The notes: a model not told the origin generated them from the letters alone. 64,000 bases of DNA from a virus (IMGVR_UViG_3300029513_000230:1-64000); one strand, 5' to 3'. Shown: positions 7,917 to 51,785, counted from the stretch's first letter. A program made the numbers and translations.

Positions 7917-7924
7917 GTGGATAA

Positions 7925-11604: not shown

Positions 11605-12279
11605 ATGGACAAATCAGAAGAGATTGACAAATTAGCGATAGCGTTGGCCAAGTTCCAAGGATCGCTAGAGCAACCAAGCCTCAATTCCGAGGTTGAGGTA
11701 GAAACTAAAATGGGAGGAAAGTACAAGTTTAAATACGCAGACCTATCCGAATGCAAAAGGGCGGCGAAACAACCATTAGCTGAAAACGAACTTGCTGTAT
11801 GTCAGCTAATAGAGGATGATTACTCTATCCGTACCATACTGCTTCATTCCTCCGGTCAATGGATATCGTCCAAGGTAAGGATGCCATCTAATACGGCGAA
11901 CGCTCAATCCATCGGATCGGCCATCACGTACGCCAAGAGATACGCCTTTTGCGCCATCCTAGGCATCGTGGCTGACGATGACGAGGACGCTAACATAGCG
12001 AGCGGTAATTCCGCCCAAAAGGAGCAGCCTAAGGAGCAGCCTAAAAAAACGGCAAACTCCAGAGTAAAGAAAGAGCTTACGAGAGATCATCTAAACAATG
12101 AGAGCGCAATGAAATCCATATCGGAGTGGCTATACAATAAAGAGAAGATAGCCAAGGAGGCCAACCAGCCATTCTCCGTAGAAAGCGTTATCAGCAATGC
12201 TTACATTATAGGAAAGGTAGAGATGGATTCTTTCGTAGAGATATATAACAACTATAAAATAAACAATAACCTGTCATGA
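11605..12279 (+). CDS. erf: ERF-family single-strand annealing recombinase
   Basis: Conserved ERF core ...SAITYAKRYAFCAILGI...; acidic and Gln-rich C-terminal tail. Confidence 0.75.
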   Translation: MDKSEEIDKLAIALAKFQGSLEQPSLNSEVEVETKMGGKYKFKYADLSECKRAAKQPLAENELAVCQLIEDDYSIRTILLHSSGQWISSKVRMPSNTANAQSIGSAITYAKRYAFCAILGIVADDDEDANIASGNSAQKEQPKEQPKKTANSRVKKELTRDHLNNESAMKSISEWLYNKEKIAKEANQPFSVESVISNAYIIGKVEMDSFVEIYNNYKINNNLS

Positions 12280-24689: not shown

Positions 24690-25481
24690 ATGGTAATAGC
24701 ATGGTTTTCTTGCGGAGCAACGTCCGCAGTCGCTTGTAAGATAGCGTTGAGCCTGTACAACGATGTACAGGTCTACTATATAGATACCGGATCCGGGCAT
24801 CCCGATAATACTCGCTTCCTCGCTGATTGCGAGGAGTGGTACGGTCGACCAATCCACACTATACGAAGCGATAAGTATAGCAGTGTGGCAGATGTGCTTC
24901 GGAAGGGATATATTAATGGCCCTACGGGTGCGGCCTGTACATTGAAGTTAAAAAAGGAAGTCCGGTATAAGCTCGAGAAAGAATTTGGTTGTTGGGATGG
25001 TCAAGTATGGGGATTCGATTTTGATCCTAAGGAGATAAACCGGGCGATCCGTCTAAAGCAGCAATATCCGGAAACAAAACCGCTATTTCCGCTTATAGAA
25101 CGACAGATCACGAAACAGGACGCAATGGGTATGCTATGGAAAGCGGGCATTGAGATCCCTGCCATGTATAAGCTTGGGTATAATAACAATAACTGTATAG
25201 GTTGTGTCAAAGGAGGAATGGGATATTGGAACAAGATAAGGAAAGATTTTCCAGATAAGTTCAACGAAATGGCAGAGATCGAAAGAAAGATCGGTGCTAC
25301 TTGTCTAAAAGACAATAAAGGTAAGATATACCTAGATGAGCTTAATCCTAATCGTGGTGATCCTGTACAAGAAATTATTCCGGATTGCTCTTTGATATGT
25401 CAGATCGAGTTTCAAGAGATACTAGATAGACAGGTAAAAAGAGTTCTTGATGGGGAAATAAGTATTAATGATGTAAAATAG
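24690..25481 (+). CDS. PAPS-reductase-family (PP-loop ATP pyrophosphatase-like) protein
   Basis: N-terminal AWFSCGATSAVA PP-loop variant plus YYIDTGSGHPD. Confidence 0.65.
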   Translation: MVIAWFSCGATSAVACKIALSLYNDVQVYYIDTGSGHPDNTRFLADCEEWYGRPIHTIRSDKYSSVADVLRKGYINGPTGAACTLKLKKEVRYKLEKEFGCWDGQVWGFDFDPKEINRAIRLKQQYPETKPLFPLIERQITKQDAMGMLWKAGIEIPAMYKLGYNNNNCIGCVKGGMGYWNKIRKDFPDKFNEMAEIERKIGATCLKDNKGKIYLDELNPNRGDPVQEIIPDCSLICQIEFQEILDRQVKRVLDGEISINDVK

Positions 25482-30795: not shown

Positions 30796-31263
30796 TCACC
30801 AAATCCTATAGAACCCGCCTATCCCTACATAGGGAGACAACCCGTGTTTACCGATCCCATAACCGGCTATCGCACCGATTCCCCATCTACGTGGGGTGAT
30901 CGTCTTGGTTATATACTCAGTCTTGCGATAAACCTCGATGTAATCAAGATTAGGCTTGTAACCCGAAATTGAAAGCCGGTAATCATCCGTCTTGTACTCC
31001 TTGCTGGTTATGGGTACCGGAACATATACAGGTTCCTTTACCGTGTCACCGTCCAACGTGATATAAACAGGGAACGGCTCCGGTATCGTCTGCACCAATG
31101 TCTCGTAAACAGGATACGGGATACTGTCATGGATCGTGTCGGTTATTAATACGGTATCGGATTTAGACACGACTTTATCAGTCACATCCCCCCGGATATG
31201 GTAGCCAGCCGTGAAACTGGCTACCAAGCACACTAGTATTAATATTATATGCCACGGCTTCAT
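30796..31263 (-). CDS. membrane-anchored protein (possible spanin/lysis accessory)
   Basis: N-terminal TM helix; sits downstream of the lysis genes. Confidence 0.35.
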   Translation of the reverse strand: MKPWHIILILVCLVASFTAGYHIRGDVTDKVVSKSDTVLITDTIHDSIPYPVYETLVQTIPEPFPVYITLDGDTVKEPVYVPVPITSKEYKTDDYRLSISGYKPNLDYIEVYRKTEYITKTITPRRWGIGAIAGYGIGKHGLSPYVGIGGFYRIW

Positions 31264-31647
31264 CTATCGAACGATCATCCAATCCGTAGCTAGCATATCC
31301 GTTTGAGATGCTAACCAGCCATTTACGATAGTATCATCAGCGGCTTTCATACACAAATAAGCCGTGAACTTGATCTTGTCCGTTTCCGAGTCACCATATT
31401 TATTAGCAACCCATTTCTTTACTGCATCAGGTAAGGATTTAACCTTATTCACGACCATGTCTGTAGACAAATAGTCTTCAGGACGCTGAAAGATAAACAT
31501 GCCTTTTCCATTCCATCCTTCACGACAAACCAACTCCCCTTTTTTGATAGCCTCTAAAGCTTCTCCAAATGTCATGTTTTTAGTTTTCATTTTATTTACG
31601 CTTACCTCTACAGCATTAGGTCTTGTTATTGTTAAAGTAAATTCCAC
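31264..31647 (-). CDS. DUF2829-family protein (Tad2-like)
   Basis: ...[29 protein letters not shown]...[21 protein letters not shown] matches the DUF2829 pattern (GW and W..sq.DllAeDW). Confidence 0.55.
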
Positions 31648-32045: not shown

Positions 32046-32522
32046 TTACTCTCCTTTCTTCTTTTTATTCATGGCATTGGATAAAGCGTTTGTCAAAGCG
32101 TCCTCCAAAACCTTTTGCGTTACAACCTTACCGATCATGTCGGCTGTCTTACTCGCCTGCCTCCTTTGTTTGGCGTCAGCCTTCTCCCAGATAGACCTAA
32201 CCTCCGTTATCAAGATAAATACGGTCACTATCGAGGATACGACCGGGACATTGGTCAAGAAAGGCAGATGGATAAATTCCCAGAACCGACACACGTAGCA
32301 AACCGAGTCTATCCCGCACGCTATACATACGCTACCAGCGTAAAGTATGAACTTACTGACCGTCCTACGCATGCCATACGAATTACGCTCCTCGCCCCTC
32401 AATTTAGCCTTGTAATAACCCGAGGCGAAATCCCACCCCATCGCCACCATAACGATGAACATCTCAAACACGACTACAGTCAGTAGCTCCCTCATACTGC
32501 AAATCATTTTAAAAAATTCCAT
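32046..32522 (-). CDS. holin-like membrane protein
   Basis: Three TM segments plus a charged C-terminal tail; immediately upstream of the lysin. Confidence 0.5.
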   Translation of the reverse strand: MEFFKMICSMRELLTVVVFEMFIVMVAMGWDFASGYYKAKLRGEERNSYGMRRTVSKFILYAGSVCIACGIDSVCYVCRFWEFIHLPFLTNVPVVSSIVTVFILITEVRSIWEKADAKQRRQASKTADMIGKVVTQKVLEDALTNALSNAMNKKKKGE

Positions 32523-32547: not shown

Positions 32548-32940
32548 TTATAAAACCACTATGCTCTCCTCCTCTCTCGCCGCCTCCCACTCGGCGAAAT
32601 CGCTATCCACACGGTCTTTCAACGCCTTCCTCTCGTTAAGGAACGTCTTATAAGACTCCACGTATGACAAGTCCAGTATGCCTAGCTGGGCGGCGTTGTA
32701 GTCGTTCAGCTTCTTTTGCTCCACGTCCTTGTCCCATAGGGCGTTGATACAGGCCTCCAATATCTTGTTGGCCGTCAACGTGGGCCATACCCTGACCTCG
32801 TTGTAACTATAGGAGATCACGGGGGCCATATCGTCACCCATCTCCCTTGTCTCCTCTCTAACGTCCCACCGGTACAGGTAGGAACCGTCACCGTCCCGCT
32901 CTATTCTAGGCGGCATTGTGTCGCTCCATGATCGCTTCAT
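32548..32940 (-). CDS. hypothetical acidic protein
   Basis: ORF; start overlaps the RT stop. Confidence 0.4.
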   Translation of the reverse strand: MKRSWSDTMPPRIERDGDGSYLYRWDVREETREMGDDMAPVISYSYNEVRVWPTLTANKILEACINALWDKDVEQKKLNDYNAAQLGILDLSYVESYKTFLNERKALKDRVDSDFAEWEAAREEESIVVL

Positions 32941-34000
32941 AAAACTCTGGTTTTAAAATTTTCTTAGCTAAATGCTTGCTATCGCTATCATATATCCAGC
33001 CCAGCCAACCGGCTAGACCTGCCTTGTATTCCGTTAAGGATATATTCGGGACTTTATTCAATCTAGCCGCCGCACGACATAGATTTTGCTTAGTCCTCTT
33101 CCTTATCCGTATATGCTCCTTGTAAAATACGAAACCCACGAAATCTACACCACGGCCGCTTTTATCCGATCTTCTCTCAGCGATCTTAAATATCTGGTAA
33201 TTCCCTTTCAGCTCCAACTTCAACACGGCCAATCTATCGATAAGCCACGGAAGTAATACGTTTCTCAAGAAACACTTATCATGATGGAAAAAAGTCATGT
33301 CATCCGCGTATCTGATATAATGCCTTATATCTATAATCTCCTTTATCTCGTGATCCAGATAGGCGAGATAAAGATTCGCAAGATATTGGCTAAGATAGTT
33401 CCCGATCGGAACGCCGGGAGCGGAATCGATGATCTCATCCAACAACATAAGCAAGCGATCGTCCTTGATCTTCTTCCGAGCGATGCCTTTTAACACCTCA
33501 TGGTCTATTGACGGATAGAATTTGCGGATATCAACCTTGAGGCAATAGACGGATTCACGATCGGACAAAGCCCGTCTTGTCCTCTTATACGCCTCCGTTA
33601 TTCCTCTTCCCTTGATACATGATGTCGTATCAGCCGTGAACACGGAAACCCATATAGGTTCCATGACGTTCATTATGGCATGATGCAATATCCTGTCCGG
33701 ATAATAAGGGAGCTTGAAGATGATCCTTTCTTTTGGCTCATAGATGGTATCAGTCCGGTACTTGGAAGTCTTGAACGTGCCATCCAGCAGAGACTTTAGC
33801 AAACGGCTTAGATTACCTTCTTTGTCCTTGTCAAACAACCTTATGCCGTATGAATCCTTCTTTCCCCTTCGGGCTTTCATGTCCGCAAGTATCAAGTTGT
33901 CCATATTCGCTATCTTATCAAATAAATTCCCTGTTCTCTTCATTTTATTGTCATTAATTTGCTTTTTATCATAGGGAGTCTTCGGTTTCCCTACCAACAC
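32906..34000 (-). CDS. DGR reverse transcriptase
   Basis: RT motifs: N-terminal RTGNLFDKIANMDNLILADMKARRGKK; motif 4 IGNYLSQYLANLYL (DGR-specific SQ); catalytic YIRYADDMTFF; thumb DFVGFVF. Confidence 0.85.
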   Translation of the reverse strand: MLVGKPKTPYDKKQINDNKMKRTGNLFDKIANMDNLILADMKARRGKKDSYGIRLFDKDKEGNLSRLLKSLLDGTFKTSKYRTDTIYEPKERIIFKLPYYPDRILHHAIMNVMEPIWVSVFTADTTSCIKGRGITEAYKRTRRALSDRESVYCLKVDIRKFYPSIDHEVLKGIARKKIKDDRLLMLLDEIIDSAPGVPIGNYLSQYLANLYLAYLDHEIKEIIDIRHYIRYADDMTFFHHDKCFLRNVLLPWLIDRLAVLKLELKGNYQIFKIAERRSDKSGRGVDFVGFVFYKEHIRIRKRTKQNLCRAAARLNKVPNISLTEYKAGLAGWLGWIYDSDSKHLAKKILKPEFYEAIMERHNAA

Positions 34001-34080
34001 CCTTTATATGGGGAGACTTTTTTCGCCAAGAGGCGAGGCCACCATCCCTGTTTGTTATCTAAATATCTTTTCCCCCTCTC

Positions 34081-34198
34081 TAAAAGTATAGGCGTGAACC
34101 GATGTTACGATTCGCATCGGAAGGCGCATTATTCGTATTCACGTTAGCGAGGCCTGCATTCGACCTGTTGTCCGCGTTACCGCCAACCAGCACCACCT
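34081..34198 (-). repeat. DGR template repeat (TR)
   Basis: 118-bp noncoding copy of 34643-34760. 19 mismatches, all at + strand T (= A on the transcribed strand). Confidence 0.8.
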
Positions 34199-34221
34199 AG
34201 GGATGATCGACCCTCATTCCG

Positions 34222-34575
34222 TCATTCGAGATAATACCTGTTCCCGGAGGCTCGCATCGTCACTTTCCTAGGGAACTTGTCCATCTCCTTTATCTTACCA
34301 AGAACGTACTTGATCTCTTGGGAGTTCGTAAAGAATTTCTTGGCATCACTATCCTTATCCTCTAGATTCTCCTTGATCATGACAAGCGCCCTGTCTTTCC
34401 CGAACTTGGTGGACACGCCATCCATGTAATCAATTACCCAGAACGTGAGATTCGTCAACTTCTGTTGGGTGATCTCCGGACAATTAAAATGCCTTGAGTT
34501 CTTATCCCTTGGGATATTCAAGAACGACAAGCTGCCGTCATCTTTATTCTTTTCTTCTTCCATTTTTATCCTCAT
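34222..34575 (-). CDS. candidate DGR accessory variability determinant (Avd) by position
   Basis: 117-aa Lys-rich ORF located between target gene and TR, as in the BPP-1 mtd-avd-TR-brt layout. No sequence similarity to Avd is claimed. Confidence 0.35.
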   Translation of the reverse strand: MRIKMEEEKNKDDGSLSFLNIPRDKNSRHFNCPEITQQKLTNLTFWVIDYMDGVSTKFGKDRALVMIKENLEDKDSDAKKFFTNSQEIKYVLGKIKEMDKFPRKVTMRASGNRYYLE

Positions 34576-34614
34576 TAAACGTTATACAAAAAATTCCCGA
34601 CGTGATACGTGCGG

Positions 34615-36753
34615 CTACGCCGACGTTTTACGATATTCGGGGAAAAAGCAAAGGCGTGAACCGACGTCACGATCCGCAGCGGAAGGCGCAGAACCCGTAT
34701 ACACGTCAGCGAGGCCCGCATACGACCCGGTGTCCGCGCGACCGCCAACCAGCACCACCTGCATGCGGTTAGCCGATGTGTAGGTGTAGTAGTAGTCGCA
34801 CCAGTAGGTAGAACTACTACCGCCGATCTCCGTAGCTACGATATCACCATCCTCACCTAGGAGCATCTTCTTGGCATAACCATTGGTACGGCAGATGTTG
34901 CCTTTCTTGTTATAGCCTGTGTAAGATGTATCGCTGAAGTTTGACGGGTCATCGGTAGTCCATAATATGGATAATCCCGCATCGCCCGTGGTGACCTGTA
35001 TATTGGCCCCGTCGGTGTATTTCCAGATATGGCCGAACGGATTCTCTATGCCACGATACCTGTTAGCCATCAACGTGGCGTGAGTACCGCCGGAAGCGTT
35101 CTTCACGACATATGCCTTCTCTCCCGAGCCGTTCCCGAACTCGTTGGTATAGCCGCATGGGATAAGTGGATTGATCTTGTTGAAGTTAGTCCAATCCGTC
35201 ATTTGCGTTGGTCCCGGACCTAGGCCACCTTGGGCGAAACCGTTTGCGTCCTTCTGGGCGTTGAAAGGCTTCTGGCTGTCCAGCGTGGCGTACTCGACGG
35301 CGAATAGCCAGAACAGGGTCTTGTGGGCGTTGTAGGTGTACATCTCCCAACCGCTGCCACGTTTCCTTGCGGCTTGCCGGAATTGGTCTCGGGTGAGGTT
35401 GGTGACGGGACGGCCTAGCAAGGAACGGTAGGTTCCGTCCCATTCGGCGGTGTTGTCGCCGCCTCTTGTATCAGTAGAGTTTGTTTTATCCGACATCAAT
35501 AACCCTAAAGATCTAAGCATTTGCGCCTCACTTGAGCCTATATAGAATTTGCTTATATGCTTGTATCCGGGCAATGGAATCGAAGATAACATCATTTTAA
35601 ATTTAGTCCCAGTTATGTATATTCTATACCAATGATCGGGAATCTCTACCATTGACGCATAATCTTTAGACGCAAATGTCATCTTCCATGCCGTTGGTTC
35701 ATGATAATAATATACTCCTCCATTATTATCTAACACGACTCCTCTCATCCCGCTCTGCACCGGCAACTCCCTATGCAGTTGCATATTTCCAACACGCTTC
35801 CCGTCCGGGCTTGACGATGCCATGTCCCACTCTACACCATAGGCGTACCGCTCCTCGATGTCGGGGATGTCCTCCCAAGCGGGGGTCCACTCGGTGGAGA
35901 TGTCGCCGTACTCGAGCTTGATCTTGTGGATGGTGGAAGTTGATGTGCCAGTTTTAGGAGAACTAAATACAACCATATGTGTATTATCAGCTACTGCATC
36001 TCCGATATTAGTAATCCATTTAAAAGCCTTACTGGCCTTCCCATTCACAAAGTCAGTCTTACTGAACTGAACCATAGAACCTACTGCACCAGTAGAGTTA
36101 TATATAGTGAACATTTCCTTATCATCACCCAATTCTCCAAAAATAGTCAATGTTACTTGTGTTCCTTTAGATATCGGTTCAGTTAGCCAATAATCAGCGA
36201 TATTGTAATTCGAATTACTCACCTCCTTCCCTGATCCCAGCAACAGGTTCCTGCCGTACACGGGCAGCTTGCGGTACTTGCCATCAGCCATCAGAGACTT
36301 ATCCTTGTCCCCCTTGGTCTCCAGCGTTATCGACACGTCCGGATCGTCATTTTTTGCCTTGTCCGGCGTTATGGTTATCTGACCGTTAGACGGGGTGGAT
36401 GTGACAACGGGCTTTAACTTATCAACGTCCGTCCTTAGACCGGTGACCAGATTCCGGATATCCGTATCGTCGTAATGGTCACGCAAGTTAGGCGTGGTTA
36501 TGGTTCCCTCAGCGGAGGTTATCTCCAAGACGTATTCCGTATCCGTGTTAGTCTTTATCCTCACCTTGATGTCTTGCATCACCAATGGAAGCTCGGCGTA
36601 CGTATGGATACCGTCCGAGAACTTCATGTTTAAATTGCCGTTCGCCAACCGCTCGAAAAGCCATAGCGACGGCGGGTATATGGTGCTGTCAGCCGTCCAC
36701 TCGGCGGTGGACTGCTCTATCTGTTGGTATACGTAAGCTCCTCTCTTGCTCAT
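34615..36753 (-). CDS. DGR target protein, tail-fibre-like with C-terminal CLec-type variable region
   Basis: 712 aa; C-terminus ...RMQVVLVGGRADTGSYAGLADVYTGSAPSAADRDVGSRLCF carries the VR; lies in the tail-fibre module. Confidence 0.7.
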   Translation of the reverse strand: MSKRGAYVYQQIEQSTAEWTADSTIYPPSLWLFERLANGNLNMKFSDGIHTYAELPLVMQDIKVRIKTNTDTEYVLEITSAEGTITTPNLRDHYDDTDIRNLVTGLRTDVDKLKPVVTSTPSNGQITITPDKAKNDDPDVSITLETKGDKDKSLMADGKYRKLPVYGRNLLLGSGKEVSNSNYNIADYWLTEPISKGTQVTLTIFGELGDDKEMFTIYNSTGAVGSMVQFSKTDFVNGKASKAFKWITNIGDAVADNTHMVVFSSPKTGTSTSTIHKIKLEYGDISTEWTPAWEDIPDIEERYAYGVEWDMASSSPDGKRVGNMQLHRELPVQSGMRGVVLDNNGGVYYYHEPTAWKMTFASKDYASMVEIPDHWYRIYITGTKFKMMLSSIPLPGYKHISKFYIGSSEAQMLRSLGLLMSDKTNSTDTRGGDNTAEWDGTYRSLLGRPVTNLTRDQFRQAARKRGSGWEMYTYNAHKTLFWLFAVEYATLDSQKPFNAQKDANGFAQGGLGPGPTQMTDWTNFNKINPLIPCGYTNEFGNGSGEKAYVVKNASGGTHATLMANRYRGIENPFGHIWKYTDGANIQVTTGDAGLSILWTTDDPSNFSDTSYTGYNKKGNICRTNGYAKKMLLGEDGDIVATEIGGSSSTYWCDYYYTYTSANRMQVVLVGGRADTGSYAGLADVYTGSAPSAADRDVGSRLCFFPEYRKTSA
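34643..34760 (-). repeat. DGR variable repeat (VR) at 3' end of target gene
   Basis: Matches TR apart from 19 A-position substitutions; ends 26 nt before the stop codon. Confidence 0.8.
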
Positions 36754-38090
36754 GATAATATCCCTTTATCTATTATTGTTACTGATTCATTGTAGTAATT
36801 CGCCCCGGTCAAGTAGACGTTCCCCGGCAAGGCGGCACCGGAAGACTCCTCCCATATGGCCTTACCCTCCACTATGTCGTGGAGCTTGTAGAACGTAACG
36901 TCTCCGGGAGACTCCCTTAGATAGACCTCACCGCCTATAGGGTAGCTCTTGGTCTCGCCGCCCTCCTCGTAGGTCACGTCGTTCGCCCCCGGGACATGGT
37001 CGATCTCCCTTGTCTTGTATACGCCGGCCACCGCCCCGTCCTGTCCTTGCGGGATGGTAAGATCTAATTCCGCCAATGGTACCCCTTCCTCGGTCTCTCC
37101 CTTCTCGGTTATCGTGGCTTGGGCCGCCGTTCCCGGGAGACCGGTCGTCACCTTGCCGATCGATATCTTTGGGGAGAATCCCCTAGGGCCTCTCTGCAAC
37201 ACGAAGTTCATCCTGTATACGGGGTTGCCGGATGCGTCCGTGCCCCCGTCGGACAACGATACGGAAGGATACGTGCCCGCCGTTATGGTGCCTATGGAGA
37301 ATTGCGGGGTCTTCCCGGTGAAGCCTCTCATACCGGAAACGTCCACGATATAGTCGTAGCCCGTCGATGTCCTCAGATACAGCTTTCCGGTATCCTCCTC
37401 CTCCACGCTGCCCGTGTTGATGATGACGAACTTCCCCTCCGGGACGCTAGACTTGTCCGCCTCCATAGCCGAGACGGACTTATAGACCTTGTAGATCGTG
37501 AACGCCTCCGGTTTCAGTATCCTGTCCGTCTTGATATAGGCCCCGGTAGCGTAATCCCACGTGTAGACATGGAAGTCATCGCCGATATAGCCCGGGTGGT
37601 CAGACACCGACTTGGCGTTCTCAGCCGCCGTGTTCGCTTTCTCGGTTGCCGCGTCCGCCCTCTCCAAGGCGTGCCTCACGTCGTTCTCGAACTGGGTCTT
37701 CAAGGCGTTCACCTCGCTCACGATAGCGTTCATCCTCTCACGCACATCGGCGGCGGCTTCCGTGGCCGGCCTCTTCAAGTCGGCGAGCGGTATGAGGTTC
37801 TGCCACATCCCGTCCTCGTAACGCCACTGTATGTAATCTGCGGTGACCTGCAAGACGATCTGCTTCCCGTCAACGCCCCTCAACAAGGATATGGCCACAC
37901 GCACGAGATCATAAGCCGAGCCGGATTGCCTGAACACCGGCAAGGACGATATACCTTGCAGGCTATCGGCCTCCTCGTACTGCCCCGGGTCTTTCGACGT
38001 GGTCAGCAAGAGGTCGTTGACCGCCGACGCTATCTTCTGGATGTCCTCGGGGGTCACCTCGGTGCCCGATGATAGGATGATGCTTTCCAT
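36750..38090 (-). CDS. tail fibre/structural protein
   Basis: 446 aa, GC-rich; start overlaps the downstream target gene (ATGA). Confidence 0.5.
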   Translation of the reverse strand: MESIILSSGTEVTPEDIQKIASAVNDLLLTTSKDPGQYEEADSLQGISSLPVFRQSGSAYDLVRVAISLLRGVDGKQIVLQVTADYIQWRYEDGMWQNLIPLADLKRPATEAAADVRERMNAIVSEVNALKTQFENDVRHALERADAATEKANTAAENAKSVSDHPGYIGDDFHVYTWDYATGAYIKTDRILKPEAFTIYKVYKSVSAMEADKSSVPEGKFVIINTGSVEEEDTGKLYLRTSTGYDYIVDVSGMRGFTGKTPQFSIGTITAGTYPSVSLSDGGTDASGNPVYRMNFVLQRGPRGFSPKISIGKVTTGLPGTAAQATITEKGETEEGVPLAELDLTIPQGQDGAVAGVYKTREIDHVPGANDVTYEEGGETKSYPIGGEVYLRESPGDVTFYKLHDIVEGKAIWEESSGAALPGNVYLTGANYYNESVTIIDKGILS

Positions 38091-38700: not shown

Positions 38701-41700
38701 TTATCCCAAAGATATTTTAAGCATATTCCCATCCCGCCATATAGCTCCTTTCACCTTTGGATCTACTGTTGACATATACGGAAATGTCATTAATCCCGAT
38801 GGGGAGATATTAAACAAGACATTTCCTCCATTATCGTAAGATCCAAATCCGAAATATCCCATGGAAACTCGATAATTGGAGACACCTGAAGATGCGTTTC
38901 TCATATAAATATGGAATGCGGGTAATGACTGATATCCAGTCATATCATTAAACAAGATCTCTCCTGTTAAGGAGTTTTTATCATTAATCATACGAATACT
39001 TCTCGTCGATGGGTCTATTATGATTCTATTCCCATTATCTGAGGTTTGTATTTTGCCTATTATACTTAAATCTCCAGATGTATTCCAAGAGATATTCTTA
39101 TTAGCTAGGAATCCTGACCCATCATGCCGTAAGACAATCTTAGCTTTATTATTCACGGCTTGTCCATATGTACCTCCAGTCCAAAAACATACGTTATTTA
39201 CATCTGGTGAAATGCCTCCTTTCACGGAGAGATTATCAATAGAACCGGAACCAACCTCTATCCTACGATTCAAACTCATGCCATCGTTACTAAACCGATA
39301 GAAAGCACTCGTTATATCGGAAGCTTTATTTACATCAAAGACTGTGTCATTAATAGTATCACGCAAGTTACTATCAAGCATTGATATAGTTACCACACCA
39401 ACAAGGTCAATCCTCTCCGCCTTGATCGTGGTGGTGGTTGCCGTCTGGTTGATATACGATATGATATTATCGCCGTTCTCCAAGCTCTTGGCGGCGAACA
39501 ACGTATTTCCCTGCGTAGTGTTGATCCATCCCGCCGTGTCTATCTCATTCCTTATATTGTCCACCCTAGTGGAGATACCCGTGATTTGTCCCGCCTGTAC
39601 CGACAAGTCCGACTCCAGCTTCACCTTCACTTGGTTTGTCGCCGTATCGGTATAGTCCTTCAACTTGTCCTGTATATACTTGTTCGCCGTCTCCACGGCG
39701 CTCTCGAACGAGGACATGGCAGTGTTGAAGGCCGCAAATTTCTTATCCACGTCGGCCGTCTCCGAGGCCGTGGTCTTTCCGTCCGCTATGGCCGTGTTGA
39801 TACTGCTTATCAAGGCGCTTATAGACGAGTCCAAGACATCCTTGGCCGATTTAAGACCGGTCTTGGCCGCACCGTCAAGGTACGTGTTGGAATACAACTT
39901 CGTATAAGTGGCGGTCACGCTGTCCTTGGACGTGTTCACCGTATTCAGGTACTTCTCTATGGCCTTGGCCTCGGCCTCCGTTATGATACCGTCGGCGAAA
40001 GCGCCGTCAACGTATGTGTTAAGGCTTGTCACGGACTGGTTAGCGTTATCGGCGGCGGTCTGGGCGGCCTTGGCGGCGTTATTGGCCAGCGTTATGGCCT
40101 CTTGCGCCGTGGCGAATTGCTCCTCCGTCACACGGGCGGATATCTCCTCGGCCATGACCGACAACTCAGCGTCATACTTGGTATATATCGCACCTGTCTC
40201 CGAGTCCACGTACTCCTTAGTGGCCAGCAACTTTATATATTCCTCCGTCTGCAAGATCCGCGTCTCAAGCTTTATCACGGCATCGGCCAATCGGTCGTTG
40301 AACAACGACACTCCATATATCAATATCTCGCCGGTGAATCCGATCCTGAAATCCCCGGTACCGTCCCATTTGCCGGCTTTTGACAGCTTGACGTACTCGT
40401 CGGACGGATCGAGGGTCAAGGAGTCGTACAACTCCTGCCCGGCGAAACCCACCGTCAAAACACCTCGTCTCATGACCTTGTAAAACAAGGAGAAGGAGAA
40501 CGTATGACCCTCATCGCTCTCTTCCAACTCAGGAACTTTCATCACGTCGTTACGCTGGAATATATACGTGTCCTTGATGCGAAGCACGTTCCTGTTGCCA
40601 TCCCTATAGATATCGGAAACCTTCCTCTTGTCCGAGTAAAAAGAACCGCCCACCCACAGGAGATTGCCGCTCACGTTGATGAAATGGATGTCGTTGGCCT
40701 CCGCCCAATAATTCGTGTCCTTCCCGAACGTGGAATTGACAAGTATATTCCCGGATTCCAGAGACATGTCGTTCCTCACCCCCTCAATCTCGCTCCTCAG
40801 CTCCCCGTTCATCACGTAGAACTGCTGCTCCACGGTCATGCCGTTATCGAGGTATATGGACGAGTTCTCTATATAGATCCCGTTCAGGTAAGCCCCGTAA
40901 CCCTTCAGCTGGGTCCCGTTCTTGGTACGGATCATGGAGAGGTTGCCTAGCTGGGCCTTCAGCGTGTCTTGCGTGGAAACGCCCGTGATACCGTCATATA
41001 CGGCAATGAACGGCGCTCCTTGATCCGCCGATGTCAGGTAGATAAGGCCCTGCCTAGTGGTATCCCTGTCGTTACCCCATCGCATGGCGAAATCCCCAGC
41101 CTCTGGCTCGCCGGTACCCTCTATCAGCGGGTAGGCCACGTCGAAATAGTCGGATGAGATACCGATACAGCGACCGAATAGATATTTAGTGGACGTGATA
41201 CCGTTCCTTCTCTGTATCCTCACTCCGTCACCTTCCCTGAGGTTCATCAGCATGAGACCGTCCATGTCGTCCATGTAGCATCTCCAACGATCGGACAGCC
41301 TCTCGACCCTCCCTATCTTGTTGATATCGGACACGATCTGGTTGCCGCCCAACCCGTATATCTGGGAATACACTATCTCGTAGGCCGTGAAGGTCTTCCT
41401 AGCGAATATGTTGTCAAAGGTTCCCGTGGCCGTGGGGATGTCTATCTCCGTGCCCCAGCCGGTGAAGCCGGGGGCGAACGATATGGAGCCGATCTTGTTG
41501 CCAGCGTATATGTCGGAACGCACCTTCAACGCCTCCATGATACCGGAACCGTCGGCCTTGATCTCCCAGCCCTTACCGTCCATGCCGTCAAGAAAGATGG
41601 AGGAGCCTATCTTCTTGTCGAAGATGATCTCCCCCACCGCCTCGTCGTTGATATCCTTGCGAAGATACCTCTTATCCAAGTCCTCAAGATCGAGTATGTC

Positions 41701-42132
41701 ACAGGTATCCAAGCCCGTGACATGGCCGAAGTCATCTAGCAATACGGACGCAATACCTTTCTTCTTCGTCTTATTTATACTCTCTTGAGAAGAGGTATCC
41801 TTATGGGAAATCGTATATATATTATTGATATCCGATTTTATCTCTATACCCGGACCTTGTGCCAAGGAGAAATCGCCGCCTCCCCCCTCACCTCCGCTTC
41901 CGGAACCTTGACCTCCTATCCTTCGCACCTTATTATCACTGGCAAGGATGAACAAGGCGGGGTCTCCGGCGTAATCATTCACGAACAACTCGCCCCTCGT
42001 CAATCCGGAGAGGTGCCATTCCTTGGTCCCGTCATTTATAGCGACGGGAGGAGGAGCTGCTTGCAGCTTACCCTCGGACATCACCGTATCCGACCCGTAC
42101 CATATATGTTTGGTCAATTTCTTTTTGCTCAT
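38701..42132 (-). CDS. large distal tail/host-specificity protein (1143 aa)
   Basis: Gly-rich linker GQGSGSGGEGGGGD; size and position typical of central tail-fibre or host-specificity proteins. Confidence 0.55.
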   Translation of the reverse strand: MSKKKLTKHIWYGSDTVMSEGKLQAAPPPVAINDGTKEWHLSGLTRGELFVNDYAGDPALFILASDNKVRRIGGQGSGSGGEGGGGDFSLAQGPGIEIKSDINNIYTISHKDTSSQESINKTKKKGIASVLLDDFGHVTGLDTCDILDLEDLDKRYLRKDINDEAVGEIIFDKKIGSSIFLDGMDGKGWEIKADGSGIMEALKVRSDIYAGNKIGSISFAPGFTGWGTEIDIPTATGTFDNIFARKTFTAYEIVYSQIYGLGGNQIVSDINKIGRVERLSDRWRCYMDDMDGLMLMNLREGDGVRIQRRNGITSTKYLFGRCIGISSDYFDVAYPLIEGTGEPEAGDFAMRWGNDRDTTRQGLIYLTSADQGAPFIAVYDGITGVSTQDTLKAQLGNLSMIRTKNGTQLKGYGAYLNGIYIENSSIYLDNGMTVEQQFYVMNGELRSEIEGVRNDMSLESGNILVNSTFGKDTNYWAEANDIHFINVSGNLLWVGGSFYSDKRKVSDIYRDGNRNVLRIKDTYIFQRNDVMKVPELEESDEGHTFSFSLFYKVMRRGVLTVGFAGQELYDSLTLDPSDEYVKLSKAGKWDGTGDFRIGFTGEILIYGVSLFNDRLADAVIKLETRILQTEEYIKLLATKEYVDSETGAIYTKYDAELSVMAEEISARVTEEQFATAQEAITLANNAAKAAQTAADNANQSVTSLNTYVDGAFADGIITEAEAKAIEKYLNTVNTSKDSVTATYTKLYSNTYLDGAAKTGLKSAKDVLDSSISALISSINTAIADGKTTASETADVDKKFAAFNTAMSSFESAVETANKYIQDKLKDYTDTATNQVKVKLESDLSVQAGQITGISTRVDNIRNEIDTAGWINTTQGNTLFAAKSLENGDNIISYINQTATTTTIKAERIDLVGVVTISMLDSNLRDTINDTVFDVNKASDITSAFYRFSNDGMSLNRRIEVGSGSIDNLSVKGGISPDVNNVCFWTGGTYGQAVNNKAKIVLRHDGSGFLANKNISWNTSGDLSIIGKIQTSDNGNRIIIDPSTRSIRMINDKNSLTGEILFNDMTGYQSLPAFHIYMRNASSGVSNYRVSMGYFGFGSYDNGGNVLFNISPSGLMTFPYMSTVDPKVKGAIWRDGNMLKISLG

Positions 42133-48161: not shown

Positions 48162-49166
48162 ATGAGGAAAATGCTATTTTTTGTCCTAGCGGCAATATTT
48201 TTGCTAGGATGTGAGAAAGAATTTGTCGATATCCCACCTAAAGCTAGTATAACTGAAGACAATGAGCCTATTTTAACTTTCTTGGAGGAAGAAGGACTAA
48301 GGCCATCCCAATCTGATAAAATAAGCGATATATTGGGAGATATAGAAGAGGAAGGCTATAGGCTGTTATTAGGCAGGAGGTCTGATAATGCTTGGTTTTC
48401 AAAATTAGATCCATCAGGCAATGAAATTTGTTGTTTTGAATTACCTCCTTTAAAAAAATGGAAATATTCTCATTATAATATGAACTCTGTTCTATTTAAA
48501 TCCAAAGACCATATTTTTGTTAGAGGATGGTATTCCAATCAAAATGATCCATCTATAATGGGTTATGATTATGATGAGATAGTATCTATTGTTGATTTTA
48601 ACAAAGGTGTCGCAACAGACCATCTGGATATTGTTTCAAACGATACGCAAAACAATGACTATAGATATACACTCATGGAGTCTAATTATAGGACTCTAGT
48701 ACTTAGATCGACTTCGTCTTTTAAGAATCAACATCTATACGTAGTTGGCTCCGAAGGTAAAATATTATATCATAGAGACTATGATAATAAGATCGAAGGG
48801 CCTTATTTAGAAAATGGGGTCATATTTATTGATGACGAAATAGCATGTCCAATTATAGAGAAAGGTATAAACATGTATTCTTCTATAGCCAAATTACCAA
48901 TATTTAATTTAAGGACATGGACATTGATAAAAAAATTAGATTCTGAAAATGGATTGATCCCAAAAGGGGATAGATACAACGAGCCTAATATTTCATATAA
49001 GACAGACACGGTATATCTTGAGAAAAACAATATAATATACGCATATGGAGAATACAAAAACAAAAAAGATCCAATATCAGACACCAATATTGAGACATTG
49101 CTTGATAAATATTATTATGAAATAAATATTGGATCTTATAATGTTGAAGGCCCATTCAAGTATTAA
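48162..49166 (+). CDS. lipoprotein (accessory 'moron' gene)
   Basis: Signal peptide + lipobox LLGCEKE; ATG at 48162 preceded by the same TAAATCAAGTCATGA leader as the next gene. Confidence 0.55.
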   Translation: MRKMLFFVLAAIFLLGCEKEFVDIPPKASITEDNEPILTFLEEEGLRPSQSDKISDILGDIEEEGYRLLLGRRSDNAWFSKLDPSGNEICCFELPPLKKWKYSHYNMNSVLFKSKDHIFVRGWYSNQNDPSIMGYDYDEIVSIVDFNKGVATDHLDIVSNDTQNNDYRYTLMESNYRTLVLRSTSSFKNQHLYVVGSEGKILYHRDYDNKIEGPYLENGVIFIDDEIACPIIEKGINMYSSIAKLPIFNLRTWTLIKKLDSENGLIPKGDRYNEPNISYKTDTVYLEKNNIIYAYGEYKNKKDPISDTNIETLLDKYYYEINIGSYNVEGPFKY

Positions 49167-49191
49167 AACAATTCAAATCATAAATCAAGTC

Positions 49192-50652
49192 ATGAAAAAA
49201 GTTTTACCTATTTTTCTTCTATTAATGCTATTTTGTTCTTGCAGTAATAAAGACGATTATACCATAACTTCTATTTCTATTGATAAAACAAAGCTAGAAT
49301 TGAAGATTGGTGAAAGTTATGATTTCCAAATGTCCCATTTCCCTTCGGAGGCTCCTTCTCCCCGATATAAATGGGTTACATCTAAATATTTTCCGATAAA
49401 TGGCCCCGAAGATGGCTATGAAATAGCATCTATTGATCAAAACGGAACTATAAAAGCTTTAAAAGAAGGTGTTACAATTGTAAGCGTAGAGACAATTGAT
49501 GTTTTTGATCCCGAAAAAGGTTATCCTTTTTTTCAGTCATGCAAAGTAACCATAAAACCCATAGTAGGTGAATCCATAACATTATCCAAGACAGATCTTG
49601 ATATGAAGCCCGGAGAAACGGCTTCGTTGACGTATACCATATCACCGGATAACGCCACAAGTAAAGATGTCATATGGAAAACCAGTGACCCTAAAGTAGC
49701 TTCGATATCCTATGGTGGCTTCACATCCAATGCCGAGATTACAGCAAAAGGCCAAGGTGAGGCAACAATCACCGTAAGCCTAAAGGATAACCCCAAGGTG
49801 TCTGCTACTTGCAAGGTCAAGGTAGGAGCGGCAAAGCTTGAAAGTATCAGCTTTGAGGAAAAAGAAAAGACAATCATGCAAGGTGAATCAACCAAGTTAA
49901 ATCTTGTGTTTACGCCTTCTTATGCTACTAATAAAAACGTACAATGGACATCCTCTAATAAGGATATAGCGGTCGTTGATAAGGAAGGTAACGTTACTGG
50001 AGTTCATTTCGGGGAATGTACGATAACCGCCAAAGCCGAGGATGGAGGATTTGAGACGGCTTGTAAGGTCATAGTAAAGCCTATTCCGGTAGAAAACATA
50101 TCTTTTCCCTCACGTTACTATGATATCGAGATAGGAGGGGAAAAACAATTAATTGTAAATTTTACTCCGGAGAATGCGGGAAACCGTAATCTTACATGGT
50201 CTTCCTCTAATCCTATAGCCGTGTCTATTGACAAGACCGGAAAGGTGAAAGGGAATACGTCTGGAAGTTCAACAATCACAGCTACCAGCGAAGATGGTGG
50301 GCATAAGGCATCCGTAGAAATATATGTAGTTGAAATAGATCGTTTGATGAACGTGTACTTCCCTTCTTCATCCGTCGTTATTCTCAATGGATATTACACG
50401 GGAAGTATATCATGCGCCATCCGAAATAATAGTTCTCATGCCGTAAACCTAAGCAAATTCTACGTCGTTGAATCTAATACCTATAAGACTGTATTAGAGA
50501 CTACGGATATGTCTATATTAGGAGAATTAAAGCCCGGAGAAACAAAAACGCTTAATGCTAGATTAAACTCGGTGTATGAGCCAATATTCCGTTGGGAGTT
50601 TGAATATAATGGAAATTCATATTCTACGTGGACTAAATATGGAGATAAATAA
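49192..50652 (+). CDS. surface lipoprotein with tandem bacterial Ig-like (Big_2) domains
   Basis: Lipobox LFCSCSN; 4-5 repeats of ~85-aa Big_2-like units (e.g. ...GEATITVSLKDNPKVSATCKVKV). Confidence 0.65.
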   Translation: MKKVLPIFLLLMLFCSCSNKDDYTITSISIDKTKLELKIGESYDFQMSHFPSEAPSPRYKWVTSKYFPINGPEDGYEIASIDQNGTIKALKEGVTIVSVETIDVFDPEKGYPFFQSCKVTIKPIVGESITLSKTDLDMKPGETASLTYTISPDNATSKDVIWKTSDPKVASISYGGFTSNAEITAKGQGEATITVSLKDNPKVSATCKVKVGAAKLESISFEEKEKTIMQGESTKLNLVFTPSYATNKNVQWTSSNKDIAVVDKEGNVTGVHFGECTITAKAEDGGFETACKVIVKPIPVENISFPSRYYDIEIGGEKQLIVNFTPENAGNRNLTWSSSNPIAVSIDKTGKVKGNTSGSSTITATSEDGGHKASVEIYVVEIDRLMNVYFPSSSVVILNGYYTGSISCAIRNNSSHAVNLSKFYVVESNTYKTVLETTDMSILGELKPGETKTLNARLNSVYEPIFRWEFEYNGNSYSTWTKYGDK

Positions 50653-50987: not shown

Positions 50988-51785
50988 TTAACAAGCCTCT
51001 TTATTTCCTAAGAACTTGTTCACGAAGTAAACCTGCCCTTTTCCGGTGACCTTCGGCGTGATAGTAGTATGTAACACCCCGTTATTACCAGATCTTACGC
51101 CTTTCTTCAACTCGAACAAGCCTTGCTCCACGTATTGCTGGTTAGGGATATTGTATCTCTCACCATGCTTTCCGAGATATCCATTGTCACGCATCCATGC
51201 GAACAATCTTTTCTCCCCGATGGAATACCCGTTTTGAGCGATCAGCTTGGCGAGTTCACCGATCAGGCAGGAACTGTTCGCCGATTGAACGGCGTTAGTA
51301 AAAGCAACGGCGGGAGCGGCCTCGGTTACTTTCCGTTCGGCCTCGATACGCTTTCGTTGTTCCTCTTTAAGGTTTGTGGCCAATTGGATCAAGAAATCGG
51401 GCGAGGTCAAGGCTTTCTCCAGTGTATCGTTTGTCATATACGCTCCATGTTTGCGGATGGAAGGGAGAACCTCTCCGCATACCCAGTCTTGGAATGGTTC
51501 GGCTTGCGGTTTGTCGGATCGCATGATTACCTTGTAAAGGTTCTGCTCATTGATAAAAGTTAACGTAACTTCTTGCTCTGTTGTGATACCATATTGATTA
51601 GTAGTCTTTGAGACCCCGTCGGTCAAAACTACCCCCTCTGGTTTTAATCTTGATTTGCAGTCTCTTGGATTTTTTATTTCCAAAACCCGGCAAACGTCCA
51701 CAAGGCAAAATAAAGGATTCTCACTTGTCCCGGCTACTCTCACTTCACCGAAACGATCGTTCTCAAAAATTTTAATTGCTTCCAT
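50988..51785 (-). CDS. Bro-N/KilA-C-type phage antirepressor
   Basis: N-terminal ...IFENDRFGEVRVAGTSENPLFCLVDVCRVLEI..., a Bro-N-like domain. Confidence 0.6.
   Translation of the reverse strand: MEAIKIFENDRFGEVRVAGTSENPLFCLVDVCRVLEIKNPRDCKSRLKPEGVVLTDGVSKTTNQYGITTEQEVTLTFINEQNLYKVIMRSDKPQAEPFQDWVCGEVLPSIRKHGAYMTNDTLEKALTSPDFLIQLATNLKEEQRKRIEAERKVTEAAPAVAFTNAVQSANSSCLIGELAKLIAQNGYSIGEKRLFAWMRDNGYLGKHGERYNIPNQQYVEQGLFELKKGVRSGNNGVLHTTITPKVTGKGQVYFVNKFLGNKEAC

Follow-up and report, generated by a model that had tools for sequence, protein, structure and literature searches.

The locus analysed here, carried by a gut prophage, raises two questions: whether a reverse transcriptase (RT) gene and an imperfect repeat beside a tail protein gene amount to a complete diversity-generating retroelement (DGR), and what protein occupies the place that the avd gene holds in the DGR of Bordetella phage BPP-1. 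The window, meaning the whole stretch of viral DNA that was analysed (64,000 nt), contains a complete natural DGR in the tail module of the phage, with RT, TR, VR and target all located where the original prediction had put them. All parts of the cassette are on the minus strand:

34615..36753, minus strand: DGR target gene, 712-aa tail (receptor-binding) protein (ORF; PHROG 5302)
34618..35847, minus strand: C-terminal 410 residues of the target, predicted C-type-lectin/FGE-type domain carrying the VR (AlphaFold2, Foldseek)
34643..34760, minus strand: VR, target codons 666-703 (repeat comparison; actively mutagenised part 34657-34740)
34643..34656, minus strand: putative IMH-like 3' boundary of the VR (three fixed differences from the TR end)
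34222..34575, minus strand: 117-aa basic accessory protein (predicted OB-like beta-barrel)
34081..34198, minus strand: TR, non-coding, 23 nt downstream of the accessory gene stop codon
33955..34040, minus strand: structured spacer RNA, Rfam RF03020 RT-17 RNA (covariance model)
32906..33943, minus strand: DGR reverse transcriptase, 345 aa from its most likely start (RVT_1, PHROG 1423, 8ub7 RT chain)
32548..32940, minus strand: 130-aa acidic ORF (PHROG 11557; overlaps the RT stop by 35 nt)

Two of these parts, the RT-17 RNA between TR and RT and the acidic ORF at the RT stop, were missing from the original prediction. Considered as a whole, the locus is very likely a complete and currently active DGR set among the tail genes of a siphovirus-like temperate prophage, the host of which is probably Parabacteroides. 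The DGR itself is of a known kind, and it is the accessory module that appears to be undescribed.

Repeats, reverse transcriptase and target

The repeat search of the window returned a direct repeat (34082-34198 and 34644-34760) with a spacing of 562 nt, and when 34081-34198 and 34643-34760 were compared without gaps on the minus strand, the result agreed with the 118-nt TR/VR pair proposed earlier, beyond the limits of which the similarity collapses. The claim that the pair differs at 19 positions, every one a template adenine and no other base, held exactly (19/19; A>G 10, A>T 5 and A>C 4, from TR to VR), an outcome with a chance probability of 4.9e-15 (hypergeometric), and 19 of the 29 template adenines have been changed. 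The TR is non-coding and lies between genes, while the VR is at the 3' end of a coding gene, where it covers codons 666-703 of 712 and ends 26 nt from the stop codon; no additional VR-like copy was found in a search of all 64,000 nt. In the reading frame, template adenines fall at codon positions 1, 2 and 3 in the numbers 12, 12 and 3 (24/27 at positions 1 or 2), nine codons are AAY (five AAT and four AAC), no stop codon can be reached by adenine mutagenesis, and the codon changes between TR and VR are 13 non-synonymous versus 2 synonymous.

The mutagenised stretch corresponds to TR positions 21-104. Positions 110, 112 and 118, the three 3'-most TR/VR differences, are T, G and T in 11/11 VR copies from different samples, and they are therefore attributed to an IMH/IMH*-type fixed boundary, not to ongoing mutagenesis. 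The VR ends in …CGCCTTTGCTTTTT and the TR in …CGCCTATACTTTTA, with the same three differences in all copies, and across the class the VR ending is CTTTGCTTT and the TR ending CTATGCT, CAATGAT or CTATACT; codon 702 is an invariant Cys in the 119 target proteins described below. By analogy, this putative 3' boundary would act in an IMH-like manner. The sequence after the VR in the window folds into a hairpin no better than shuffled sequence does (z -0.18), and a conserved hairpin downstream of the VR was absent among 25 related loci; a hairpin or cruciform at this place, as in BPP-1, is not known to be universal among DGRs.

The RT had been predicted to carry the DGR motif 4 and YADD, and ORF 32906-34000 (minus strand) contains both IGNYLSQ and YADD (full motif segment IGNYLSQYLANLYL), the former being of the form [I/V/L]GxxxSQ that is the motif-4 signature of DGR RTs (PMC7826257). 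An RVT_1 domain is present, and PHROG 1423 is matched at 2e-104. In a profile search of the PDB, the best solved relative was the 328-aa RT chain of 8ub7 (E 4.5e-33), which we take to be the Bordetella phage bRT; IGNYLSQ aligns with IGSLTSQ of this chain, and the counterparts of bRT R74 and I181 are conserved. Far more distant are the RTs of group II introns (2.9e-14) and those of retron type (1.9e-12), and the NCBIfam group II (97.9 bits vs cut-off 300), retron (63.6 bits vs cut-off 235) and Drt models all scored below their cut-offs, which places the enzyme on the DGR side as had been proposed. The RT most likely starts at ATG 33943 (345 aa) rather than at GTG 34000, because the alignment with 8ub7 begins at residue 21 and the RT-17 match (33955-34040) fills the putative N-terminal extension.

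The target matches PHROG 5302 'tail protein' (4e-103) and is flanked by the tail-like genes 36750-38090 and 38701-42132. Its N-terminal part is swapped between related phages, and in other contigs the same cassette stands beside targets of 500-1036 aa. In the AlphaFold2 model of the C-terminal 410 residues (pLDDT 89.2, pTM 0.91), the VR sits in a C-type-lectin/FGE-type domain, in keeping with the display of DGR variable repeats on C-type-lectin or Ig folds. The solved structures nearest to it include the DGR variable proteins TaqVP (5vf4, E 4.7e-8, probability 1.0), Mtd (1yu0-1yu4) and TvpA (2y3c), together with PvdO and CalU17 (Foldseek). Sequence methods applied to the VR domain gave no fold match, and the likeness is that of the structure model.

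Natural diversification of the VR

Variation in nature was followed in 119 near-identical 712-aa target proteins from metagenomes (97-100% identical), which, coming from assemblies, each represent a consensus and not within-sample read-level variation, and which carry 118 distinct VR peptides on only 24 backbones, so that diversification must have been very recent and repeated. Mean entropy in this set was 2.13 bits at template-A codons, versus 0.027 at the remaining VR codons and 0.014 in the rest of the protein, and the original expectation of variation at template-A codons only is thus borne out by population data in which each sequence is an assembled consensus. At the DNA level, when each VR of 10 further contigs is compared with the TR of the same contig, 179 of the 180 mismatches fall at A, and the TR is identical in 8 of these 10 contigs while the VR is different in every one. 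IMG/VR loci gave the same picture, with 1276/1297 TR/VR mismatches at A and 68 distinct VRs versus 20 distinct TRs. The element is naturally active, and its diversification is restricted to the VR; it hypermutates the tip of a tail protein.

It is extremely unlikely that the cassette in the window is nevertheless an inactive relic, the VR diversity in the databases having been made in the past or by other copies. One assembled sequence is unable to show activity, and many crAss-like genomes have incomplete cassettes, but every part here is intact, with open frames and the catalytic motifs present. The TR of the window is the majority TR, point variants in the TR of other contigs are mirrored in the cognate VR, and so many VR peptides on so few backbones also speak against a relic. 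The mismatches, the RT type and the population data all favour the DGR interpretation first made for this locus.

An accessory protein in the position of Avd

The order of target, small ORF, TR and RT had been likened to that of BPP-1, and the likeness stands as far as position is concerned; the small ORF, however, is not an Avd homologue. It encodes a basic protein of 117 aa (pI 9.1) for which domain and family models gave no known domain and no match to an Avd-type family, and a profile search of the PDB returned just two chains, both unrelated. The predicted fold is a small OB-like beta-barrel and not a four-helix bundle; it may be a true OB fold, which would be a closed barrel of five strands, with a helix lying between the third and the fourth, that matches known OB folds significantly in structure. 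Structure comparison of the model listed no Avd or helical-bundle match and showed resemblance to phage SSBs; OB-fold proteins that bind single-stranded nucleic acid (bacterial and phage SSBs, Rim1, PRD1 P12) are among the closest known systems. A canonical DGR of the BPP-1 type (architecture B), in contrast, has an avd gene encoding a basic four-helix bundle, to which the window lacks a match in family, PDB profile and fold searches. Judged by sequence and predicted structure, this is a different conserved protein with a different fold.

The protein belongs to a compact, basic, unnamed family that adjoins or is linked to the RT in 78/78 loci of the viral collection and 78/80 genomic loci. Of the genomic loci, 35 have it as a stand-alone gene beside a DGR RT, and 41, like hankyphage, have it fused to the C-terminus of the RT as an extension after the thumb domain. 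In these fused loci the domain is joined to the RT and not to the target, from which the RT separates it. We infer that the DGR includes the 117-aa OB-like protein as a true component. This protein resembles Avd in cassette position, small size, basic charge and presumed partnership with the RT, but no homology to Avd was detected, the predicted fold is another one, the domain can be fused to the RT, and the family is strongly conserved (66-79% identity in the best 120 matches) whereas avd genes are poorly conserved.

The role of this protein, like those of the RT-17 RNA and the 130-aa ORF, is read from linkage, fusion, charge and predicted fold, and on these grounds it probably replaces Avd as the nucleic-acid-binding partner of the RT, acting on the TR/RT-17 RNA or on cDNA. 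A broader proposal, put forward tentatively, is that the family is an unrecognised DGR cofactor, a small basic OB-like module that occurs either separately (with RT-17) or as a C-terminal domain of the RT (with RT-3) and that may replace Avd in lineages reported to be avd-less by holding the RT on the spacer RNA, the nascent cDNA or both. Extensions past the thumb domain were reported in about 20% of DGR RTs, and an 'Avd-independent' mechanism was proposed (Wu et al., 2018); if the proposal is true, these extensions and that mechanism would be at least partly one thing. The module, which differs from the usual helper Avd and which related phages carry fused to the RT itself, offers an explanation, open to testing, of how DGRs in which avd is reported missing could function.

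It is also conceivable, though on the unlikely side, that the protein or domain serves the DNA stage of the process and is not an Avd-like priming cofactor. Folds of this OB-like, SSB-like kind are typical of proteins that bind ssDNA, the location of the fused form after the thumb domain would suit such a role, and the replacement of VR by cDNA is still unexplained in all DGRs. However, each form of the accessory has its own spacer RNA, RT-17 for the stand-alone and RT-3 for the fused form, which hints at a protein-RNA partnership, and RNA binding and DNA binding would both fit the observations. Far less credible is a passenger, such as a tail-fibre chaperone, an assembly factor or a general phage SSB, that travels with the target of an otherwise real DGR. 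The gene does come directly after that of the tail protein, no known domain was recognised in its product, and likeness to phage SSBs would fit a replication protein equally. Against this stand the translational fusion to the RT in 41 loci, on the side away from the target, the near-universal adjacency to the RT, the presence of an identical accessory alongside targets of quite different N-terminal architecture, and the separate recombination module of the window (ERF at 11605-12279); in addition, in class-1 loci, the DGR class of the window, the accessory has identities of 56-73%, against 37-48% for the less conserved target domain. A highly diverged Avd, forming a four-helix-bundle pentamer in a canonical BPP-1-type DGR, is barely credible and was rejected, since only its place between target and TR, its size (117 vs 128 aa) and its pI (9.1 vs about 9.5) agree, against the family, PDB profile and fold results.

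Spacer RNA, acidic ORF and related systems

Returning to the reading of the 117-aa protein as a partner of the RT, its candidate RNA counterpart is the spacer between TR and RT, which matches RT-17 (RF03020) over model positions 1-95 of 95 with 43.4 bits (gathering score 40.4), and two related loci (L002 and L006) are also above this gathering score. In a three-stem model built from 22 loci, 87.5% of cells are paired, 8/12 pairs have changed on both sides, and covariation is 0.39, compared with 0.17 in shuffles. The fused class has an RT-3 RNA in the same position (118-158 bits), and in BPP-1 this position holds RT-10 (Weinberg et al.), within the Sp region that binds Avd and supplies the priming site. 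By analogy, the RT-17 RNA probably takes the role of Sp as a protein-binding and priming platform.

The 130-aa ORF (PHROG 11557) is acidic (pI 4.6) and follows the RT in class-1 loci, as an acidic ORF of 152-162 aa does in class-2 loci. The HMM of its family matches two ORFs of the crAss-like phage cr50_1, one of which also matches the HMM of the 160-aa ORF behind hankyphage-type RTs; the link to the latter is transitive only, direct comparison by hhalign giving a probability of 2.5%, which is not significant. CH1 is described as an acidic protein of 160-169 aa encoded beside the RT (Wu et al., 2018); the 130-aa ORF, which may be related to it, would probably serve as a second accessory factor of the CH1 kind.

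In the proposed mechanism, the accessory gene, TR, RT-17 spacer and RT gene would most likely be on one transcript, and the RT would copy the TR RNA into cDNA, misincorporating opposite template adenines. The cDNA would then be exchanged for the VR in the 3' end of the target gene, the fixed IMH-like sequence setting the 3' limit of the exchange. Up to 15 codons, mostly AAY, could be recoded on the ligand-binding face of the C-type-lectin domain, allowing about 1e14 peptide variants and zero stop codons, and with so many stop-free variants on that face receptor specificity could be retuned.

Three known systems bear comparison. BPP-1 (mtd-avd-TR-Sp-brt) is alike in the order and strand of its parts (a target with a 3' VR, a small basic ORF, TR, spacer RNA and RT), in adenine-specific TR-to-VR differences, in the [I/V/L]GxxxSQ motif and the residues corresponding to bRT R74 and I181, in a C-type-lectin phage tail protein as target, and in a fixed difference at the 3' VR/TR boundary. 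Unlike BPP-1, the window has a predicted OB-like beta-barrel in place of the helical-bundle Avd, RT-17 in place of RT-10, no conserved hairpin after the VR and an extra acidic ORF over the RT stop, and the RT match to the 8ub7 chain, although significant, is distant.

The crAss-like DGRs (crAssphage LMMB; cr50_1), those published being described as without avd (lineage 3), are related through cr50_1, which has an RT of 46% identity and homologues of the 130-aa ORF, and whose tail protein matches that of the window over the C-terminal domain at 79% amino-acid and 91.5% nucleotide identity. It differs in its Crassvirales backbone, as against a siphovirus-like prophage, and in gene order. In the 15 kb of cr50_1 examined, neither an accessory homologue nor a TR was detected, and with no detectable TR in that stretch its cassette may be defective.

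Hankyphage (Bacteroides phage p00) is likewise a temperate phage of gut Bacteroidales with a C-terminal C-type-lectin VR, a TR, a structured RNA and an RT. Its DGR would fall in lineage 3/3a, reported as lacking avd and having the CH1 accessory gene (Wu et al., 2018), and the 'Avd' ascribed to it in the literature has pI and size as its only grounds, or is drawn without stated evidence. The RT cores are about 28% identical and the spacer RNA is RT-3, not RT-17. The same OB-like domain is present (36.5% identity, E 6e-14), but as the C-terminal extension of a 434-aa RT, whereas in the window it is a separate gene upstream of the TR, and in hankyphage too a conserved acidic ORF directly follows the RT.

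A diversifying retroelement in the tail module

Few natural systems known diversify proteins as powerfully as diversity-generating retroelements (DGRs), which occur at particularly high density in the human gut; nearly all that is understood of how they work comes from the RT-Avd-RNA complex of Bordetella phage BPP-1. The original prediction placed a complete DGR in the window, and its ORFs and repeats were confirmed as follows.

32906-34000, minus strand: ORF of the reverse transcriptase (RT)
34081-34198, minus strand: non-coding template repeat (TR)
34222-34575, minus strand: 117-aa ORF in the avd position, here called the accessory protein
34615-36753, minus strand: 712-aa tail protein gene, the target
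34643-34760, minus strand: variable repeat (VR), the coding repeat copy at target codons 666-703

A direct-repeat search returned the pair at 34082-34198 and 34644-34760 with the predicted spacing of 562 nt, and alignment of 34081-34198 to 34643-34760 (118 nt, minus strand) bore out the claim that all 19 mismatches fall at a template A (19/19; A>G 10, A>T 5, A>C 4), the probability that 19 random TR/VR differences would all hit A being 4.9e-15. The VR has a different base at 19 of the 29 template adenines, and beyond the repeat limits TR/VR similarity collapses (MAFFT). No further or remote VR turned up when the whole window was scanned with the TR, entire and in 40-nt pieces, after every A in it had been changed to N; the known TR and VR were the sole matches. 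The coding logic of the pair is as expected for a DGR. Of 27 in-frame template adenines, 24 lie at codon position 1 or 2, the template has nine AAY codons and no stop codon reachable by any substitution, the VR carries 13 non-synonymous and 2 synonymous codon changes, and about 1e14 peptides are reachable from the template. At the 3' end, VR positions 110, 112 and 118 hold the same base across all VRs compared, the VR ends in CTTTGCTTT throughout the class with CTATGCT-type TR counterparts, and the last mutagenised adenine is TR position 104; from the sequences, we read the fixed VR/TR differences as a putative IMH/IMH*-like boundary. A hairpin 3' of the VR was neither significant nor conserved.

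The RT, which holds IGNYLSQYLANLYL and YADD as predicted, matches RVT_1 and PHROG 1423 (2e-104), and its IGNYLSQ motif fits the DGR signature [I/V/L]GxxxSQ. In a PDB profile search the structure that matches best is 8ub7, through its 328-aa RT chain (E 4.5e-33). We take this chain to be the BPP-1 enzyme bRT, the PDB table saying just 'Reverse transcriptase'; next come group II intron RTs (2.9e-14) and retron-type RTs (about 2e-12). An assignment to group II or retron RTs is opposed by the NCBIfam group II, retron and Drt models, all of which scored far under their cut-offs. The window RT, when aligned to the 8ub7 chain, retains the counterparts of bRT R74 and I181, both of which have been found to favour mutagenesis at adenines (PMC7826257).

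A search with the C-terminal region of the target returned 120 distinct proteins of 97-100% identity from many metagenomes, of which 119 are exactly 712 aa long, and in these 119 the mean entropy is 2.13 bits at the 15 VR codons whose first or second base is a template A, 0.027 bits at the 23 remaining VR codons and 0.014 bits in the 674 columns outside the VR. The same proteins comprise 118 distinct VR peptides on merely 24 distinct backbones. At the DNA level, comparison of ten contigs whose 117-aa protein is identical to that of the window showed the same TR in 8/10 and VRs that were all different, with a template A as the site of 179 of the 180 differences between each VR and its own TR. 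The TR variants C23T (contigs L086 and L087) and A104G (L087) recur in the cognate VRs, as is expected under TR-to-VR transfer. The locus was correctly called a DGR and its activity is demonstrated; we regard an active DGR here as nearly certain. A phage DGR acting on a tail protein is an already known kind of system, and the locus is a record of heavy natural diversification of the receptor-binding protein of what is probably a Parabacteroides prophage.

Target codon 676 (about 34726-34728) has the template AGG, yet it is GGG (Gly) in 117 of the 119 natural variants, which, given the mutable A, suggests strong selection for Gly there. Codon 702 is a fixed TR/VR difference, with TAC in the template and always TGC (Cys) in the VR.

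No fold was obtained for the target by sequence from Pfam, NCBIfam or a PDB profile search (E up to 10). A diverse alignment was used to model the target's last 410 residues with AlphaFold2 (pLDDT 89.2, pTM 0.91), and Foldseek placed this confident model closest, within the PDB, to three DGR variable proteins of known structure, TaqVP (E 4.7e-8, probability 1.0), Mtd and TvpA; the FGE-like folds PvdO and CalU17 came next. Across loci L083-L092, which encode the identical 117-aa protein, the accessory-TR-RT core lies beside targets of 500, 709, 712, 715, 718, 720, 755 and 1036 aa, whose N-terminal parts are swapped with retention of the lectin domain and the cassette; the DGR cassette is modular.

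A probable accessory protein, separate from or fused to the RT

The original prediction had described the 117-aa ORF by its avd position, and this position in the cassette stands, but the protein is not Avd and is without an Avd or four-helix-bundle match in Pfam and NCBIfam. It is instead predicted to be an OB-like beta-barrel, and BFVD was the library for the fold search with the predicted structure. Its sole Pfam/NCBIfam match is sub-threshold, to a Treponema denticola 'clustered-type lipoprotein' (Trep_dent_lipo) over residues 35-107 (PF09710 E 7e-4, TIGR01781 E 2.4e-5; 19-24 bits versus cut-offs of 25 and 294), a likeness that may reflect chance or a shared small domain. The protein falls in PHROG family 19665, where its function is given as unknown. 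There are 405 word-indexed homologues. The best 120 of the 405 share 66-100% identity with it, or 66-79% once its own phage lineage is set aside; they derive from bins of Bacteroidota, Clostridia and Acholeplasma, have no Pfam domain and, if named, are called 'hypothetical protein'. When 1.84 billion representatives were searched exhaustively with HMMER, just 187 matched. A profile search of the family against PDB sequences gave nothing credible and no chain of the 8ub7 entry set matched by the RT, and its sole matches, MatP (E 0.23) and a designed protein, were taken as noise.

The genomic set consisted of 80 accessory loci from GTDB species genomes, in 78 of which an RT homologue lies directly beside the accessory; the two exceptions are one short contig and locus L035, where no RT was detected. 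The order in 35 loci is window-like, with the target-VR, the accessory, the TR about 25-40 nt on, a spacer of 105-172 nt, the RT and an acidic ORF (the stand-alone class), and the other order, target-VR, TR, RT and accessory, is found in 43, of which 41 have the accessory-like region in the RT's own frame and ORF (the fused class). Among phage records, all 21 with an accessory relative, mainly genomes of hankyphage (Bacteroides phage p00) and other Bacteroides temperate phages, either have the match inside an annotated reverse transcriptase or are unannotated. The p00 RT CDS is 434 aa, and its residues 324-421 are 36.5% identical to the window accessory (E 6e-14), with the KKFFTNS motif common to both. 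IMG/VR viral contigs served as an independent collection, in which the RT lies ≤600 nt from the accessory in 78/78 loci with enough sequence, and an adenine-biased TR/VR pair is present in 73/74 loci, with 1276 of 1297 mismatches at A. When two adjacent genes are joined in some lineages but stand apart in others, as the accessory and the RT do, this is a classic sign of physical or functional partnership. The protein very probably is a true component of the DGR. That it acts as an Avd-like cofactor, and not at another step, is a more tentative proposal.

According to Wu et al. (2018), avd occurs in 74% of DGRs and is absent from lineage 3; these authors proposed an Avd-independent mechanism and raised the question of how avd-less DGRs work. 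The DGRs of crAss-like phages, which are abundant gut viruses, are described as members of avd-less lineage 3 (Morozova et al., 2020). For hankyphage, Avd was suggested from pI and molecular weight alone (Benler et al., 2018) and is labelled in a figure of a 2025 hankyphage paper, and accessory genes are undiscussed in Roux et al. (2021). A full-text literature search for DGR with OB-fold gave nothing relevant, and within the searchable literature there was no description of the accessory family or of its split/fused relation to the RT; the family might be one of the 'tenuous' PAG genes of Wu et al.

Spacer RNAs and the ORF after the RT

Rfam RF03020 (RT-17 RNA) matches 33955-34040 (minus strand), in the TR-RT interval, with a score that exceeds the gathering threshold and a match along the whole length of the model. 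The RT ORF coordinates 32906-34000 hold, but the true start is most likely ATG 33943 (345 aa), because the alignment to the 8ub7 chain begins at residue 21 and the RNA motif fills 33955-34040; the counterpart of this ATG was chosen by several gene callers on other contigs. The AAAAA, TAGTAGG, CCGAA and AGCAAA blocks are invariant in 22 aligned spacers, and AGCAAA and AAAAA are candidate sites for the priming nucleotide. A three-stem model, of which RNAalifold recovers the first hairpin only and the other two stems were read off the same alignment later tested, has 87.5% of cells paired versus 28-52% with partners slid (a control biased in favour of those two stems), changes on both sides in 8/12 pairs and covariation greater than in all 500 shuffles. 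As stems were read from the tested sequences, it is the Rfam model that provides independent support.

The fused class has RT-3 RNA (RF03068) at the same place (118-158 bits), located at 3340-3489 in hankyphage p00 (L082), and no link of RT-3 to hankyphage or to DGRs was found in the literature examined. RT-10 was put at this position in BPP-1 by Weinberg et al. (PMC5737381), who merely speculated on a DGR role of other RT motifs, and the BPP-1 Sp region, which lies there too, is bound by Avd and is the source of the adenosine used for priming (PMC7826257). An accessory module with its own conserved spacer RNA in each form thus gives a likely function for two orphan Rfam motifs, RT-17 and RT-3.

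Conserved 3' of the RT in the stand-alone class is a 130-aa ORF (pI 4.6) with a 35-nt overlap with the RT stop, and in the fused class this place is taken by an acidic ORF of 152-162 aa, which agrees with 'CH1' of Wu et al. in size, charge and lineage. Direct profile comparison of the 130-aa ORF with the hankyphage 160-aa ORF was not significant (hhalign probability 2.5%). One ORF of the crAss-like phage cr50_1 (NC_055868.1) matches both acidic-ORF HMMs (2.5e-11 and 8.9e-7), and by this shared match their homology is plausible but unproven.

Three points go beyond the known kind of system: the non-Avd accessory module, the fact that hankyphage-type elements have it fused to the RT, and the identification of RT-17 and RT-3 as DGR spacer RNAs. 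Together they lead to a testable model of Avd-independent mutagenic retrohoming. The conserved split-or-fused module is a concrete, testable candidate for the cofactor missing in avd-less DGRs, and its split form suits biochemistry, in that the RT and the candidate cofactor are separately expressible, and could aid compact DGR-based targeted-mutagenesis tools for Bacteroidales.

Phage context, host and relation to a crAss-like phage

The following features lie outside the cassette.

1-4275, minus strand: 1424-aa ORF off the window start, Cas9-like (RuvC_III 1e-53, HNH_4 1.6e-17)
4778-5626: rve-family transposase, after the Cas9-like ORF
6383-7180: S24 repressor-like gene
7925-8011, plus strand: tRNA-Arg (CCT), between the S24 repressor-like gene and early genes
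10165-11274, plus strand: early-region ORF with DUF7666 and a collagen-like repeat
24690-25481, plus strand: PAPS-reductase-like ORF
30796-31263: DUF6808, lysis gene
31264-31647, minus strand: 127-aa ORF among the lysis genes, Pfam Tad2-like (Thoeris anti-defence 2; E 3.7e-24)
32046-32522: holin, lysis gene
49129-50652, plus strand: 507-aa Ig-like-domain protein, major-tail-protein-like, on the opposite strand to the surrounding structural genes
50988-51785, minus strand: Bro-N and KilAC/ANT antirepressor gene within the structural module

The sole megablast match of the cassette, to cr50_1, suggested that the window might be a crAss-like phage, which is ruled out by its structural genes (tape measure, Ig-domain major tail protein, HK97-type capsid, portal and protease) and its lysogeny/replication module (S24 repressor, ERF recombinase, methylase and antirepressors). 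The lysis genes are just downstream of the DGR cassette. No close relative of the window was found among deposited phages and, given its structural and lysogeny genes, only the module is common to the window and cr50_1. The cr50_1 tail protein is 79% identical to the target C-terminal domain in protein and 91.5% in DNA (lectin-domain DNA 34633-35466 versus NC_055868.1 94590-95420), its RT is 46% identical, and the two genomes are otherwise unrelated. This suggests a recent exchange of the variable domain across unrelated backbones, those of a siphovirus-like prophage and of a member of the Crassvirales. No TR was detected in the last 10 kb and first 5 kb of the cr50_1 record, though the RT is present, and the cr50_1 cassette may be defective.

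Parabacteroides is the probable host genus because the identical accessory protein has been deposited from Parabacteroides distasonis isolates. Proteins RGO39548.1 and RHF13184.1, among others, mark P. distasonis isolates that carry the prophage; for hankyphage, DGR activity can be measured in the B. thetaiotaomicron jmh43 dCas9-repC system. The Cas9-like ORF and the transposase suggest that the left end of the window would be host chromosome, with the phage inserted beside a type II CRISPR-Cas locus. The stretch 4200-10200 contains no CRISPR array. The tRNA-Arg is possibly an attachment site or a phage-borne tRNA. Three aligned pieces, all within about 50.8-51.9 kb, share 93% identity with Bacteroides phage BF1-TP2, the sole near match of any deposited phage to the window's 24-kb right part, and the antirepressor gene at 50988-51785 looks like a mobile moron.
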